DNA of 64,000 bases from Candidatus Bathyarchaeota archaeon (GCA_963717465.1 OY970340.1:2592001-2656000); one strand, 5' to 3'; positions 18,001 to 27,000 are shown, counted from the stretch's first letter. Numbers are program-made.

Positions 18001-21000
18001 ACTCACTATTAGGGGCGCATGCACAAGAGTTTTAATGTATTTTATTTCACCTGCAAACTCAGCTATGCCGGGGTTTGGCAAGCCCATAGCGTTGATTAAT
18101 CCATTTTCAGTTTGAACCACAGTTGGATTAGCGTAGCCAATTCTTGGCTCCAGTCCGACTGATTTGGAGACCACTGCTCCTGCACCGCTTTTTACGATTT
18201 GCAACATAGATTCTGCGGTGTAACCGAGTATTCCGGAAGCTAGAATAGTCGGATTTTTAAGCTCTAATGAACATATTTTTGTGCTTAAAGGATTGTTTTG
18301 CAATTTTTCACTCATTCACAATTAATTCAAGTATATTTAAAGAAATAAATGTTCGTTAGCTAAGAAAATGATTTTTCCTTAGCGGAAAATGATAAGCTTG
18401 CTCGTGATTTCTGGGGGAAGCTATTTTTTCTTTTTGAACTGGTCCGCTTCTAATTCTTCGCCGCTTAGGAGAAATTTCAACGATTTGACTTCATCCCGTA
18501 GCATGGTGATTTCGCTTTCCAAAGCTTTTGCTTTTGCTTCCGCCATTCTTTTTAATTCTTCAATTTCAACAAGAAGATTTTTTCTTTCAGCTTCTAAAGC
18601 TTTTATACGTTCCACTGTAGTTTTAAAATTACTCATTATTCCCCACTCGGCACTACACCTAATTGCTTGGTAAAACTTAAGACTTTTGGGTTTAGGGACT
18701 TGTTTAACCTCGGAAAAGAGTTATTATTTTAAAGAATACTACATTTTTATATGAGAATAAGCAGTTTTAATTAACTGTTTATGCTTACTTGTTGGATGAA
18801 CCTAAATGAGGAAAACCATATTCAAGAAGCTTGAAGCCCAGGGGCTAATAGCAAATTATAATAGGTTAAGAAAAAATTTGCCACCTAAACTCCCTGAGCG
18901 AACATTCATTTGGGATGAAACATTCAAAGAAGGCATAAAATCACCCACGATTTACTTGACTTATTTTGAACAGGTTAAGCTTGCAAAGTTAATGGATGAA
19001 GTGGGTATTTCTATCATCAACGTTGGTTTTCCAGCCTTATCTGAAGAGGAAAAACGTAATGTTAAACGCATCGTAAATGAAAGTTTTTCCCACGCTAAAC
19101 TTACAGCTTCAGCAGACCCAACAAAGAACAGCATTGATGCATGTTTAGAATGCGGTATAAAGGAGATAACCATTGAATCGCCCGTTAATGGTTTAAATCT
19201 TCAATACCGGTTAAAAACTACTAAAGCGCAAATTCTAAAAAAAATTGAAGAAAGCATCGATTACGCTCGAAAACATGGTGCAGAAGTAAATTTCGTCTTA
19301 ATTGACGGCACGAGAACGCCGCTTGAAGACATTTTAGAAACGTTTCAGTTAGCAGTTAAAGCTGGAGCAACCAAACTGGTAATTGCTGATTCTGTTGGTT
19401 TTATAAGACCATTATCGATGCGTTACCTCATATCACACATCAGTGATGGGTTGCCTGATTCAATCCGAAAAAAGGTGCCGCTTTCAATTCACTGCCACAA
19501 TGATTTCGGTTTGGCAACGGCAAACACGCTAGCTGCCGTGGAGGAAGGCGTATCTTACTTACATACGTGCATCGCTGGGTTTTGGGGGACGCGCAGGAAT
19601 AGCACCGTTTGAAGAGGTTGTTACAGCAACAGAACTGCTCTATAATATTGACACAGGAATTGATCTTGGAAAAATAACTAGGCTAGCTCAAGCTGCCGAA
19701 AAAGGATTTGCCTTGCCCATTCAATTTCACAAGCCGATAATCGGCGAAAACATCTTCGCCCAAGAAGTAGAAAAAGAAGTTGACGAAATGTTAGAGCATC
19801 CATTGGTTTATGTGCCATATCCGCCTGAAATTGTTGGGACGAGAAACAAGTGTTTTTATCGGAAGAAACACTAGTCACGCTGTTAATTCAGCAACTTTTG
19901 GAAAAAGCAGGAATTAGAGCATCACCTCGGCAAATGGATGAGGTATTTAGGCGTATTAAAGGTCCTAGTGAAGGCTTAGATAAAGGCGAAGCCCAAATGA
20001 CCTATTACCAAGTGAAAAAGTTAATGAAAGATTTGCAGAAGGGGTATACGATGGATGAATTCTGGCGTTTAGTGGAGCAAGTAACAAGGCAAAAACCAAA
20101 GCTGCTTACCTAAAACATCGCCAAAAGAATTATCCATGCAATCATCTGAAGCAAGTCCAAGCTAACTTAAAGCCTAATTGCTGTTTTATTTTTTCTTTTT
20201 CTTTAAAGGACATAATTTTGGGATAATTGTAGAATGGCCCGCTTGGCTTTTCGTTATAGAAGGGGCGGTTACAATTGGGACATCCTGAAGTTAAGAAAGG
20301 AACTCCAGTTTCAACTATTTTTTCTAACTGCCCTTTTTTAAGCCCGAAACTCGTTATTTTTCCTGCTTCGTCGAAGCCAAAACTTTCGCAGCGTGATGAG
20401 CCTTTAACTATCAAGAATCTAGCTAATTGCACTCGTCGGTAAGCTTCAATTTTAGGCTGAGCACTATTTTCCAGCGCTGTGCCTTTTATGGGTGTAAAAG
20501 CAAACAAGGCAGGCAAAACATTCATATCAAAACATGCCTGAATAGCTGTAACAGCGTCTTTCTCAGTTTCACCCAAACCCACAATCAAATGTGTGCTTAC
20601 GTTTCCTTTTCCCAAGAGTTTAGTCGCCATTTCTAATTGTTTAAACTGGTTTTGCCAAGTGTAACAGCCTCCAGCATCTAAACCCTTAACTTTATTGAAT
20701 AAAACCTCTGATGATGCATCTAAAGCGATTCCAAGACGGTTTACGCCTGCTTGTACAAGGAGCTGAATGTTTTTCGCAGTTTGAGGTTGGCATGAAACTG
20801 AAACTTCAATTGAAGACTTATTCTTTAATTCTTTAACTATTGCTTCAAGATGTTGGAAAACATTAGGATAATTCAGTGCTTGAATACACACACGTTTTAT
20901 TTTGCCTTGTTCAAACGCAGTTTTAATCGCAATTATCACGTTTAATGTTGGAAACGTTGGCCATGAAACTCTTGAAAGCAGTTCTGCTTTGCTTTGGCTT

Positions 21001-24000: not shown

Positions 24001-27000
24001 CTGCTGCCTTATCAACTTCATTTTGGATGCCGCTCCATTCGGTGCCGCATGAAATCTGTGCAATTTTGATGGTCACTGCTTCAACTCCTTTTCAGGCTGT
24101 TTAAGGAAGTTAACTACTTTTTGAACAAAAACCACTGCTTCCTCTTCATTGCGTGGATAACTTAGCGAAAGAATCGGAATATCTCGCTGTCTAACCATGT
24201 ATTTCGCGAATTCATTTGCTCTAGCACAACCTGAACTGCCAAAGGCTATTTCAGAATTTTCCACAAGAATTGCAACATCAGCCTGCTGCACCAAGGGCGC
24301 CAGCACATTTATTCTTCCTCTGACCCCGGATGGGACATCAACCGAACAATATTTTAGAGCTTCTCGCGGCTCTTTGTAAGTTATGCCGTATGGTGGCGAA
24401 TCAAAAGTGGCAATTTTTGCACGTTTACTAATTTCTTCCATTATAGCTAAAGGCTCATGACCAAGCCTTTTCACCATATCATACAAAACCAGACTATTGT
24501 ACGGGAAAATGAAGACCTTCAAACACCTGACCTCTAGTTAACGTCTCAAAAGCTCATTAAAGATTATTTCGGTATTTTCATGTATTTCCTTATCGTAAAA
24601 GTTTCTAGATGATTTAGACAAAAATGGACCTGATAAGTTTTTACAGTGGATTCATTAAGGAAACTTAAATAACGATTGTTTACTTGCAAAAACTTGCATA
24701 TTACACTATTGTTTAGTTTTGACGGAAAGTTATAAATTGTTAAGATGCTATTAGGAGTAAATATATAGTATTTGAGCTATTGATGTAAAAAAGAGGATAG
24801 GAAATTGAGCACTCACGCAGAAGATTTGAAGCTTCGGTTAATGACGATTGAACTTTTAAGAACTGCCAAGTATAAACGTAATATTACTTATCGAGAATTA
24901 GCTTCCAAAACAGGTTTACCAGTCACCGTTTTAAGCCGATACGCAAAAGGACACGTTTTACCCAACACCACACGCGCAAGACAACTTGGACGGATTCTTA
25001 CTAAACTAGTGGGTTTAGAAGCAGAGTTGCGGAGCAGAATAAAATTTGATGACACAGGATATTTCGATAACACTGAAATAGTGGGTGACTACAACATCCT
25101 TCAGCAAGCAGCAAATCATGCTCTTGCCAATTTTGCTGGAAAAAGAGTAACAAAAGTATTAACTGCCGCCGTAGATGGCATTCCGTTAGCCACCATGGTT
25201 GCTAACTCATTAGGAGTTAATCTTAATCGTCGCAAAAAGAAACAAGGAAGTAGGCGTTAAAGCCTTCCTTGAAGAAACATACATTCTAGGAAGAGATTCC
25301 GGAGTAACAGTGACACTTTACATTCCAAAAGAAGCAATAAAAAAACGTGACAGCGTTCTCGTAGTAGACGACATGATTAAAAGCGGAGAAACCCAGGAAG
25401 CACTAGTTAACCTCGTTAAAAAATCGAAGGCTGAGATTTCAGGCGTTTTCTCGCTCATCGCCGTCGGTGAGGAATGGAAGAAACGACTCAAATTCGGCGA
25501 CGACGCTCCAGTTGAAGTAGTCACTTACCTCAAATCACCAATCGACAACTAAAATAAACAATTTTTAACGACCAATTTCGTTCATTTGAGGTTTAGCAAT
25601 TGAGAACTATAGAGTGGAAAAATGGAACAGTTATAACCATTGACCAAACAAAACTGCCCAATGAAACAGTAACTTTAAAAATCAAAACAGTTGAAGAAAT
25701 GGCTGAAGCAATAAAAACTCTGCGCATCCGTGGTGCTCCATTGCTGGGGGCAGCAGCTGCATTCGGTGTTGCGTTGGCGGCTTACAATTCAAAAACACAA
25801 AATAAAGAAGAATTGCTAGCTGAATTAGAGGACGCTGGTGCAGTAATTAAGCGCCAAAGACCAACAGCTGTAAACCTTTTTTGGGGTGTTGATCGCGTCT
25901 TTAAAAAAGCACACGAATTTTCAGGAAGCACGGATGAATTAAGAGCATTGGTTATTGCTGAAGCACAAAAGATTCTTGAGGAAGATGCAGAACAGAACCG
26001 TGCAATCGGTCGAAACGGTGCAGTACTTATTAAAGATGGTGATACAATTTTAACTCATTGCAATGCGGGCGAACTGGCAACTGTTGAATATGGCACTGCG
26101 TTGGGAGTTATTACGGGCTGCTTGGGAACAAGGCAAAAAAATCAAGGTTATTGCTGATGAAACTCGGCCGCTACTGCAAGGTGCAAGGCTAACAACTTAT
26201 GAGCTTAAACGTGCAGGTATACCTGTGACTTTGATTACTGATAACATGGCTGGCTTTATCATGCAAAAAGGGCTTGTTGACAAGGTTATTGTTGGCGCAG
26301 ACCGGATTGTTCAGGATGCTGTTATTAATAAAATTGGTACTTTTTCAGTTGCCGTGTTAGCGCATGAACATAAATTGCCTTTTTATGTTGCGGCGCCAAA
26401 ATCCACGTTTGACTTAGCCCATAAGGCTGCTGATGTTACAATAGAAGAGCGAAAACCTGAAGAAGTTACACACATTGGTAATCAAAGGATCGCTACAGAA
26501 GGCGTAGCAGTTTATAATCCTGCTTTTGATATAACACCGTTGAAATATGTCTCGGCAATTATCTGTGAAAGTCAGAGTCTATTACCAAAAAGATTTTAGT
26601 AAATTCAAGAACAGAAAAGGAATTGCCCAAAAATCAAAGAAGCCAATAAAATCAAGTTGATTATTCAAATGAGCAAAAACGAAAAGACTACACCTGTCGA
26701 ATTCAAGACCAGCGGCGTCCTCTTAGAAAAAGGAAGTAAAAATAAAAGAAAAAAGCAGCATTGATGCGCTCTCCAGCCGCGGATACGGAACTATGGAGAA
26801 CGATGTTTTTAAGCTAACGTTTTACGAAGCGTTATATCTTTTAGATAAGGGCATGCTTGAGGTTAAAGATAAGAAAGATAACGTTTTGGATTTTCAGAGT
26901 CTTCTCCATTGTTACGAGGCTGTTGATGAGAATGCTTGGGTTAACTACTTGGTTTACAGAGACCTTCGCAGTCGAGGTTACGTTGTCAGGGAAGGATTCG

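Follow-up and report, generated by a model that had tools for sequence, protein, structure and literature searches.

The ASKHA activators, termed ‘archerases’, operate by an ATP-driven electron-transfer mechanism. The methanogenesis markers Mmp5 (TIGR03271/DUF2112), Mmp15 (TIGR03286), and Mmp6 (TIGR03272/DUF2102) canonically belong to the operon for MCR activation; a CxxC motif has been named for Mmp5 (PMC9425974). In Methanosarcina acetivorans the genes for these three markers could not be deleted, and parts of the same work propose Mmp15 as a second ATPase (bioRxiv 10.64898/2026.03.18.712670). The MCR activation complex comprises McrC/Mmp3/Mmp7/Mmp17/A2/DUF2098 with L-cluster-like centres; in the passages of that source on which we draw, Mmp5, Mmp15, and Mmp6 are operon markers that go without mention in the solved complex, and the remaining operon Mmps are expected to be necessary in vivo (PMC12176620). 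With a solved complex that, in those passages, does not contain the three proteins, and with genes that cannot be deleted, the reductive activation of MCR in vivo is still open. Outside methanogens, markers m4 to m9 of one hot-spring Thaumarchaeota SAG were described as putative remnants (portions of the PMC9635834 supplement), and the relevant part of PMC12700198 Table S6 lists one Methanonezhaarchaeia MAG with DUF2102, DUF2112, and a YjiL-like ATPase, and without mcrABGD, m4, m8, and cfbD. The portions of the literature on which we draw contain ‘remnant’ remarks and presence tables and do not describe a second clade of 5/15/6, which the marker-tree figures of PMC9635834 or other surveys may show.

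The window analysed here is a 64,000-nt stretch of a Candidatus Bathyarchaeota genome (GCA_963717465.1 OY970340.1:2592001-2656000; hereafter G000). About 0.94 Mb from the mcr cluster, it carries the second mmp5–mmp15–mmp6 trio (hereafter B) that the first-pass annotation had pointed to; the trio is real and intact, with all ORFs confirmed on the minus strand and adjoined on that strand by SCP2 and lipS2 ORFs. The features are as follows.

24073..24522, minus strand: mmp5B, 149 aa, marker-5 (DUF2112) paralogue
22829..24076, minus strand: mmp15B, 415 aa, overlapping mmp5B by 4 nt
21850..22836, minus strand: mmp6B, 328 aa, overlapping mmp15B by 8 nt
22519..22791, minus strand: DUF2102 core of Mmp6B, residues 16-106, a generic ferredoxin-like alpha/beta fold in models
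22219..22386, minus strand: inserted small alpha/beta domain of Mmp6B, residues 151-206
22027..22173, minus strand: four-Cys domain of Mmp6B, C227-x24-C252P-x4-C258-x3-C262PYG, hallmark of the B clade
21764..21771, minus strand: TATA-like TTATATTT, 64 nt ahead of the SCP2 start
21312..21707, minus strand: SCP2 gene (SCP2 Pfam, 38.1 bits), a neighbour outside the module
21265..21270, minus strand: T6 run 3' of SCP2, a possible archaeal terminator
20142..21173, minus strand: lipS2 (LipS2, 345.8 against a cut-off of 270), convergent to a leuA-like gene, outside the module

Mmp5B and Mmp15B score above the NCBIfam cut-offs for marker 5 (184.8; cut-off 140.25) and marker 15 (547; cut-off 455.75), and Mmp6B does not reach that for marker 6 (54; cut-off 125.95). 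Identity to the mcr-locus copies (50% for Mmp5, 56% for Mmp15, and 38% for Mmp6) was reproduced. One 312-nt contig from sequencing run X1 spans the mmp5B–mmp15B junction with 2 differences; the contigs of this run hold nothing on SCP2/lipS2 linkage. Mmp5, Mmp15, and Mmp6 are the only markers with a second copy in G000, where McrABGCD, Mmp3, Mmp7, Mmp17, NifB, and Mmp2 are single, and the window shows no mmp3, mmp17, mmp7, nifB, atwA, or mcr with the trio. Relatives of Mmp15B (86-90%) lie on contigs of 128899, 7676, and 7294 nt, sizes that match the contigs of three relatives with a long Mmp6. The trio is conserved, its genes move together, and its HgdC-type ATPase is intact.

The joint Mmp5+Mmp15 tree sets 11 B rows apart from 31 canonical rows (SH-aLRT 98), and the B rows still fall on one side (98) when the seven long rows are removed; the terms ‘lost’ and ‘gained’ below presume a root on which the canonical form is older. 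An AU test rejects a single clade made up of the two G000 Mmp15 sequences and their close relatives (p=1.2e-77), and a duplication within G000, as initially supposed, is not supported. Judging from these sequences, the split between canonical and B forms is old and common to several Thermoproteota lineages: clade B is also found in Nezhaarchaeales and in Nitrososphaeria-like hot-spring archaea, and four Nezhaarchaeales genomes encode an Mmp5–Mmp15 fusion followed by a four-Cys Mmp6. The occurrence of two copies only in this genome holds for the Bathyarchaeia sample (2/401 with a match, two copies in G000 only) but not for Nezhaarchaeales, in which DUF2112 is present twice in three of 15 genomes and only as the derived copy in a fourth. 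The class sample around G978 yielded a single match among 301, canonical only.

Draft genomes that carry B also include some in which mcr was not found. In G1297, searches recovered no McrA, McrG, Mmp7, marker 13, NifB, or canonical 5/15/6, and McrA was found in none of three members of its family; in G860 (88% complete), there was no match to McrA/B/G, Mmp3, Mmp7, or marker 13, and a NifB-like gene is kept. Such absences can be assembly gaps: G955 (72%) has canonical markers, yet McrA/B were not found, G978 has McrA and no detected marker 13, and G798 has its mcr genes and most markers in one block, a caution that applies to both drafts, G860 and G1297, as well. In a comparison of four loci from the G1297 lineage, whose B genes show a synonymous divergence of 0.2-1.2, dN/dS was 0.03-0.11 for mmp5B and mmp15B and 0.11-0.28 for mmp6B (housekeeping neighbours, 0.04-0.13); the B genes in this lineage are under purifying selection. 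CdhC (acetyl-CoA synthase) is encoded in 5/5 B carriers examined, a count that covers carriers only and so does not discriminate.

We lean towards the B trio being an ATP-driven electron-transfer activator of a low-potential enzyme other than MCR. That the ATP-driven Mmp5/15/6 module is present a second time and probably serves a different target, in line with the first-pass annotation, is upheld.

A role closer to MCR, in which MCR (or its clusters) would have in B an auxiliary or condition-specific activator or maturase that persists for a time after mcr loss, appears unlikely, although several observations are in keeping with it. B stands alongside one MCR in each of G000, G798, and G804; G000 has both canonical and B copies, whereas neither was found in 119 congeners. 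The Mmp15 relatives of the canonical and B copies diverge in parallel, the four A-type (canonical) and four B-type clusters having the same 85-91% spread, and this joint occurrence and matching spread suggest that B was co-inherited with MCR in this genus. Markers 5 and 15 of B are also above equivalog cut-offs. However, purifying selection acts on B in the G1297 lineage, where mcr, Mmp7, and NifB were not found, and B was not found in G768 (93%), which bears an MCR locus; no second match was detected in 32/32 genomes of f46. Furthermore, neither mcr nor the scaffold markers (mmp3/7/17/nifB) lie beside B at any of the 16 other B loci considered, of which three are shorter than 3 kb (the flanks of P0002-P0006 are outside this set).

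Mmp15B is an HgdC/BadF-type ASKHA ATPase (TIGR00241, 280 against a cut-off of 125.4) in which DSGST, TGYGR, DIGG, C279, and C319 are intact; the B copies retain every ATPase and cluster motif of Mmp15. The closest solved sequences are the activators HadI (E 1e-44) and HgdC (E 2e-42). The N-domain of Mmp15B carries C10, C88, and C91. That Mmp5 and this N-domain resemble HgdB-type cluster domains is no more than hinted at: HGD-D matches occur in 4/65 Mmp15 at E 0.07 or worse, and hhalign against the HgdB-like protein of G000 gave E 0.007-0.085 at a probability of 5% or less. There is no HgdAB/BcrBC-type acceptor gene adjoining the trio, and the B loci have no flanking partner gene in common, a point against the activator reading. 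In Mmp5B, the canonical FG-C-x-GC reads FG-S-SGC-A-RAN, Ser96 replacing the first Cys and Cys99 being kept; the first Cys is absent from 11/11 B rows and present in 31/31 canonical rows. Searches of PDB sequences with Mmp5 and Mmp6B returned nothing useful, and a complex prediction of Mmp5B, Mmp15B, and Mmp6B (residues 8-275), to which a control came too close, was not used either way.

As first reported, five relatives have the long form of Mmp6 (48-78% identity), which rules out a frameshift artefact or fusion as the origin of the extension, and the invariant cysteines of the extension number four (C227, C252, C258, and C262), not three. The RxCR Cys of Mmp6, found in 33 of 34 canonical sequences, is present in none of the 19 B sequences, Mmp6B included. 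The inserted domain is found in the long forms and in P0129/P0131, and the 170-aa forms of Nezhaarchaeales and hot-spring archaea lack it (P0130 was left out as a repeat artefact). The AlphaFold model of the 328-aa Mmp6B (6 rows) has a mean pLDDT of 41 with the extension mostly unresolved, and that of a short form (21 rows) a mean pLDDT of 67 with the four-Cys part below 60. In fold searches with Mmp6, the ferredoxin-like core alone was matched (best Z 7.4, rmsd 2.4, 71 residues aligned), and the inserted domain gave one match (9jwa_C, Z 6.2, rmsd 2.5, 54 aligned); the four-Cys domain was barely covered, and we do not claim a new fold for it. Neither extension had a usable match in the ESM Atlas, and the Mmp6B extension had none in Pfam. 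The hhalign alignment of A1 with A3 was confined to the N-core, and locus scans with A1 gave no matches. The Nezhaarchaeales tail profile scores weakly against the window tail (8 bits), beating 2000/2000 shuffles and ranking 4th among 7929 G000 ORFs; homology of the tails is therefore argued from bridging hot-spring forms and from shared position. The four Cys may form a metal site.

With such a tail attached to a ferredoxin-like core, Mmp6B could be a metal carrier or adaptor within an ATP-driven unit for metal-cluster assembly, repair, or redox sensing. A second, orphan Mmp6B next to an unrelated ORF in G1297 and a doubled core in L130 are compatible with this role, as is the position of nifB with the canonical genes. 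We regard it as improbable, given that every one of the closest solved relatives of the ATPase is an electron-pumping activator or a reductase subunit and that no conserved cluster-assembly gene lies next to B.

The first-pass annotation had read the five genes as one operon serving a lipoyl- or lipid-linked target; the adjacency of SCP2 and lipS2 on the same strand and the expansion of both families in G000 speak for such a target. A single five-gene operon is not supported: gaps of 142 and 138 nt, the TATA-like box, and the T6 run set SCP2 and lipS2 apart. SCP2 is one of at least 11 paralogues in G000, and the 420 nt that cover it (21311-21730) recur at G000:2309599-2310018 with one mismatch, the twin having the same TATA-like box 65 nt ahead of its start. 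LipS2 does have three matches in G000, and the single match ascribed to 29 of 30 relatives was recovered in 27 (E<=1e-30); the window lipS2 is the resident orthologue of the genus and not one of the extra copies. At 17/17 congener loci, lipS2 is convergent to the same leuA-like gene, and none of these loci has mmp or SCP2 genes. In G551, the apt and lipS2 flanks are 165 kb apart, and the trio therefore sits at the junction of two blocks. Since SCP2 and lipS2 are also absent from all 16 other B loci, a lipoyl- or lipid-linked target is very improbable; the lipoate and lipid-carrier genes are only chance neighbours of the trio.

The view that ancestral methanogenesis left B behind as a decaying relic, which its patchy distribution, the loss of two conserved Cys, and the ‘putative remnants’ mentioned in parts of PMC9635834 might suggest, is already largely refuted by intact frames and motifs, 86-90% conservation among relatives, dN/dS far below 1, and the gain of an invariant four-Cys domain.

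In the activator reading, Mmp5B–Mmp15B–Mmp6B and the Mmp5/15/6 sub-module within the MCR activation operon would be old sisters, of which the former has been uncoupled from MCR and probably powers another oxygen-sensitive enzyme. By analogy with the HgdC, HadI, and Bcr activators, two Mmp15B ATPase domains would clamp a [4Fe-4S] cluster via C279 and C319 and, using ATP, release single electrons of very low potential. These could pass to a cluster held by the Cys of the Mmp15B N-domain and Cys99 of Mmp5B; the ligand role given here to every Cys of the trio is an assignment of ours. The jointly lost Cys (the first of Mmp5 and that of RxCR in Mmp6) may formerly have linked the module to the McrC/Mmp3/7/17 scaffold, and the four-Cys domain of Mmp6B, as a Zn or Fe site, may be a newly acquired part for relay or docking. 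The target would be a non-MCR, oxygen-sensitive metalloenzyme in need of reductive activation; from Wood-Ljungdahl or methyl-transfer metabolism, a Ni or Co enzyme is our guess, the weakest step, to which we give about a third of the weight within this explanation. A second MCR/ACR was rejected as target, G000 having one McrA, B, and G, as were the nitrogenase-like proteins of G000 as a shared target, for which G860 and G1297 gave no match. More tentatively, the trio could be a free-standing and portable ATP-driven electron pump, of which the canonical form drives MCR activation and B has been re-aimed, via an exchangeable four-Cys Mmp6, at a low-potential enzyme of non-methanogenic Thermoproteota.

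A sister module that duplicates exactly Mmp5, Mmp15, and Mmp6, fuses two of them, and changes two Cys shows that the three form one unit, and it names residues for mutation in the canonical proteins (in Mmp5 the first Cys, in Mmp6 that of RxCR). Even a copy without ties to mcr can bring markers 5 and 15 over their curated cut-offs, and these markers can therefore mislead genome-based methanogenesis calls in Thermoproteota; the Cys pattern tells canonical from B copies. Should the target prove to be a new enzyme, the few low-potential reductions driven by ATP would gain a member, and if the electron-pump reading is true, B would offer a model of the MCR activator that is independent of MCR, and would point to new ATP-dependent reductive chemistry in archaea.

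Compared with known systems, the locus shares with LipS1/LipS2 lipoate assembly a LipS2 above cut-off, but linkage of the trio to lipoate genes is not conserved (0/16). Neither PMC9635834 nor PMC12700198, in the portions on which we draw, sets a paralogue clade apart or distinguishes the fusion, the altered Cys, or the domain with four Cys. The genes of the MCR activation complex are encoded together with the canonical trio, whereas none of its subunits is duplicated in G000 or encoded at the B loci, and G1297 has no NifB match. B is homologous to canonical Mmp5/15/6, with adjacent genes and the Mmp15 ATPase and Cys motifs intact, but forms a separate clade with the order 5-15-6, no mmp3/17/7/nifB/atwA, neither the Mmp5 first Cys nor the Mmp6 RxCR Cys, a four-Cys Mmp6, an Mmp5–Mmp15 fusion in Nezhaarchaeales, and a distribution that extends to the draft genomes G860 and G1297, in which no mcr was found. 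With the ASKHA activators HadI (4eht), HgdC (1hux), MbdP/Q (9gai), and the 7yyl activase, it has the cluster Cys and phosphate motifs in common, but it has an extra three-Cys N-domain, two small partner proteins, and no adjacent HgdAB or BcrBC gene.

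All five ORFs reported in the first-pass annotation were recovered, each on the minus strand. Three encode methanogenesis markers 5, 15 and 6 and belong to a divergent paralogue clade (B), as distinct from the canonical copies of mcr-locus type (A).

21850-24522, minus strand: mmp5B, mmp15B and mmp6B (the trio)
21311-21730, minus strand: SCP2 gene with 23 nt upstream
beyond the SCP2 gene, minus strand: lipS2
18806-20113: leuA-like gene, split in two frames
24805-25552: apt, split in two frames
25600-26599: mtnA-like gene, split in two frames
30515-31880: glnA-like gene, split in two frames

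The trio ORFs overlap by 4 and 8 nt, followed by gaps of 142 nt (to SCP2) and 138 nt (to lipS2). As first annotated, marker 5 (184.8 against an NCBIfam cut-off of 140.25), marker 15 (547 against 455.75) and LipS2 (345.8 against 270) exceed their cut-offs; Mmp6B, in which DUF2102 spans residues 16-106 of 328 aa, falls below that for marker 6 (54 against 125.95). The identities of Mmp5, Mmp15 and Mmp6 to the mcr-locus copies 0.94 Mb away (50, 56 and 38%) were also reproduced. Among the MCR and marker genes compared, only these three have a second copy in this genome (G000); McrA, McrB, McrG, McrC, McrD, Mmp3, Mmp7, Mmp17, NifB and Mmp2 are single (Mmp7, NifB, McrG and Mmp3 verified against families; Mmp17, Mmp2 and AtwA assigned from sequence and position). 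The region G000:C1:1649000-1700000 holds a canonical-looking mcrBDCGA cluster with an activation operon, CoM genes, corrinoid methyltransferases and a lipoate/Hdr block; Mmp6 occurs in 0/119 congeners. There, mcrB, mcrC and mcrA (G000 1660046-1664846) are likewise split in two frames. Congener orthologues of the split genes are whole where checked and the trio is intact; the splits are most likely assembly indel errors.

Four cysteines, rather than the three counted previously, are invariant among the five long Mmp6 relatives. Three of these relatives lie on contigs matching in size (128899, 7676 and 7294) those of three Mmp15 proteins 86-90% identical to the window copy, a pointer that these relatives share contigs. 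Second, divergent matches appeared in a phylum sample in a Nezhaarchaeales-type family, as a 578-588-aa Mmp5-Mmp15 fusion with a 170-aa Mmp6 behind it, which ends in C-x21-CP-x9-C-x3-CPYG; genomes with the fusion are labelled Nezhaarchaeota by NCBI, and it occurs in 4 of 15 genomes from that order. Unfused 5-15-6 trios were detected in metagenome loci (L125/126/154, L127-L132 and L167), and the same form occurs in G1297, a genome of the same order as a Nitrososphaeria MAG. An alignment of 21 Mmp6B proteins shows no variation at the C, CP, C and CPYG positions; the window protein additionally carries a C-terminal tail and a small inserted alpha/beta element. Two loci depart from this arrangement: L181:3004-3588 (G1297:C45) encodes a second, orphan Mmp6B that has the four-Cys tail, lacks mmp5/15 and adjoins an ORF of 238 aa in back-to-back orientation, and at L130:3116-4219 (contig 57% GC) two tandem DUF2102-like cores precede a diverged four-Cys tail.

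The module duplication proposed earlier holds in that the second copy is real, but the split is old and the trio is not a local duplicate: an AU test on a quick tree of 57 rows rejects (p=1.2e-77) a single clade uniting both Mmp15 copies of G000 with their close relatives. In a joint Mmp5 and Mmp15 tree of 42 rows (15 listed loci left out because they were duplicates or belonged to G000 itself, together with any locus whose Mmp5 was < 110 aa or Mmp15 < 330 aa), a branch with SH-aLRT 98 separates the 11 B rows from the rest; leaving the seven long rows out of an Mmp15 tree gives the same split, again at 98 (trees unrooted). P0050, P0064 and P0066 form a long-branch Mmp15 group on the B side. 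All 31 canonical rows and none of the 11 B rows have the first cysteine of the Mmp5 CxxC, and the Mmp6 RxCR cysteine occurs in 33 of 34 canonical sequences (the remaining one unscored by the pattern used) and 0/19 B sequences. In Mmp15B the phosphate motifs are intact, as are C10, C88, C91, C279 and C319; among solved proteins it comes closest to HadI, HgdC and ATPase subunits of benzoyl-CoA reductase.

In the available portions of the sources, the solved activation complex comprises McrC, Mmp3, 7, 17, A2 and DUF2098, with Mmp5, Mmp6 and Mmp15 unnamed (PMC12176620); gene-by-gene deletion of the seven-gene operon was not achieved, and Mmp15 was raised as a possible second ATPase (bioRxiv 10.64898/2026.03.18.712670). 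An operon of markers 5 and 6 is described as 'highly specific to methanogenic archaea' (PMC9425974), a few 'putative remnants' of m4-m9 are recorded, e.g., in one hot-spring Thaumarchaeota SAG (PMC9635834), canonical mcr in Bathyarchaeia is already published (PMC12694404; bioRxiv 10.1101/2025.10.16.682713), and the available part of PMC6783470 contains nothing on duplicated markers. Few markers are kept in some Methanonezhaarchaeceae, and one MAG column of Table S6 gives DUF2102, DUF2112 and a YjiL-like ATPase as present and mcrABGD, m4, m8 and cfbD as absent, the pattern expected of a B-only genome (PMC12700198). We found no published description of a second 5/15/6 clade, the fusion or the four-Cys domain (supplementary tree figures were outside the scope).

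The three B genes are co-inherited, with one natural fusion among them; their activator-type ATPase is intact, two cysteines are missing jointly, a four-Cys domain has been gained, and selection is purifying. On balance, the trio is probably an ATP-driven electron-transfer activator for a non-MCR target. Known HgdC-type activators are dimers with a bridging [4Fe-4S] cluster that use ATP to drive the transfer of single electrons at low potential. By analogy, an Mmp15B dimer bridged by such a cluster would do the same: its electrons would first reach a cluster held by the N-domain of Mmp15B and by Mmp5B (Mmp5 and this domain are weakly alike; hhalign E 5e-4, probability 31%), then pass via, or aided by, Mmp6B to the target. 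In the canonical module, the cysteines missing from B would connect it to the MCR scaffold. No conserved neighbour gene was found at B loci; our guess for the target would be an enzyme of Wood-Ljungdahl or methyl-transfer metabolism that uses Ni or Co. CdhC is present in 5/5 B carriers tested (carriers only).

That B is instead an auxiliary MCR activator is unlikely. B and one MCR co-occur in G000, G798 and G804. Counting against MCR-independence, the B carriers in which mcr was not found are draft genomes, G955 (72%) has canonical markers with McrA/B not found, G978 has McrA without marker 13, within the genus both modules occur only in G000 (0/119 congeners), and A and B relatives diverge in parallel. 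In the B-carrying Nezhaarchaeales draft G860 (88% complete), McrA, McrB, McrG, Mmp3, Mmp7, marker 13 and canonical Mmp5/15 were not found, and in the B-carrying draft G1297 neither were McrA, McrG, Mmp7, marker 13, NifB or the canonical trio; McrA was found in none of three G1297 family members, which also lack B. A NifB-like gene is retained in G860, as in 9/10 genomes of its family; G774, G835 and G950 are likewise Nezhaarchaeales that keep one and where McrA was not found. In alkane-oxidiser-type loci (L113 and L114, Ca. Alkanophaga; L112, L115, L116 and L124), Mmp15 stands alone or with mmp5 only, without mmp6/3/17/7 nearby, a further sign that the 5/15 pair can part from the scaffold genes.

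A cluster-assembly or sensing unit, with the gained four-Cys domain in its favour and the intact activator-type ATPase against it, is more doubtful still.

The lipoyl link suggested in the first-pass annotation has very little probability. LipS2 matches occur in 30/30 relatives searched (exactly one in 27), and in 17/17 congener loci retrieved lipS2 converges on the leuA-like gene that it also faces in the window, is 54-68% identical to the window copy and has no SCP2 or mmp gene nearby (12 loci as wider regions, 18-19 kb). Because of this context, and because LipS2 of the congener G551 shares 68% identity with the window copy versus 44% with the next G000 paralogue, the window lipS2 is taken as the resident orthologue. 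In G551 (single contig), apt, on the trio's other flank, lies 165 kb from lipS2; the trio therefore sits at the junction of two blocks. The SCP2 gene and 23 nt upstream match G000:C1:2309599-2310018 over 420 nt with one mismatch, a gene-sized duplication ending at a ribosome-binding site and a stop codon. SCP2 paralogues in G000 number at least 11. Each twin is preceded by a TATA-like box, 64-65 nt ahead of its start (promoter reading by eye), and the two make up one of only six near-identical repeat pairs >= 250 nt in the genome, reflecting either a very recent copying event or gene conversion. None of 16 other B-type loci (five from one species, three < 3 kb, one the orphan mmp6B locus) contains SCP2 or LipS2. 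SCP2 and lipS2 are neighbours of the trio, not module parts.

That B is a relic can be dismissed almost outright: in the G1297 lineage dN/dS is 0.03-0.07 for mmp5B (three loci), 0.09-0.11 for mmp15B and 0.11-0.28 for mmp6B (four loci), with 0.04-0.13 for rps2, mvk and idi, and the B genes are under purifying selection.

Elsewhere, G000 encodes an HgdC-like activator adjoining an HgdB-like protein (C1:2430575-2432681), resembling the double-cubane cluster protein pair, and a nitrogenase-like pair made up of a NifH-like fusion (607 aa) and a NifD/K-like protein (443 aa) (C1:1349727-1353254). As a putative non-MCR activator, the B trio would work much like HgdC-type activators; it is homologous to the canonical MCR-activation markers but departs from them in its cysteines, its marker-6 score and its gene context.
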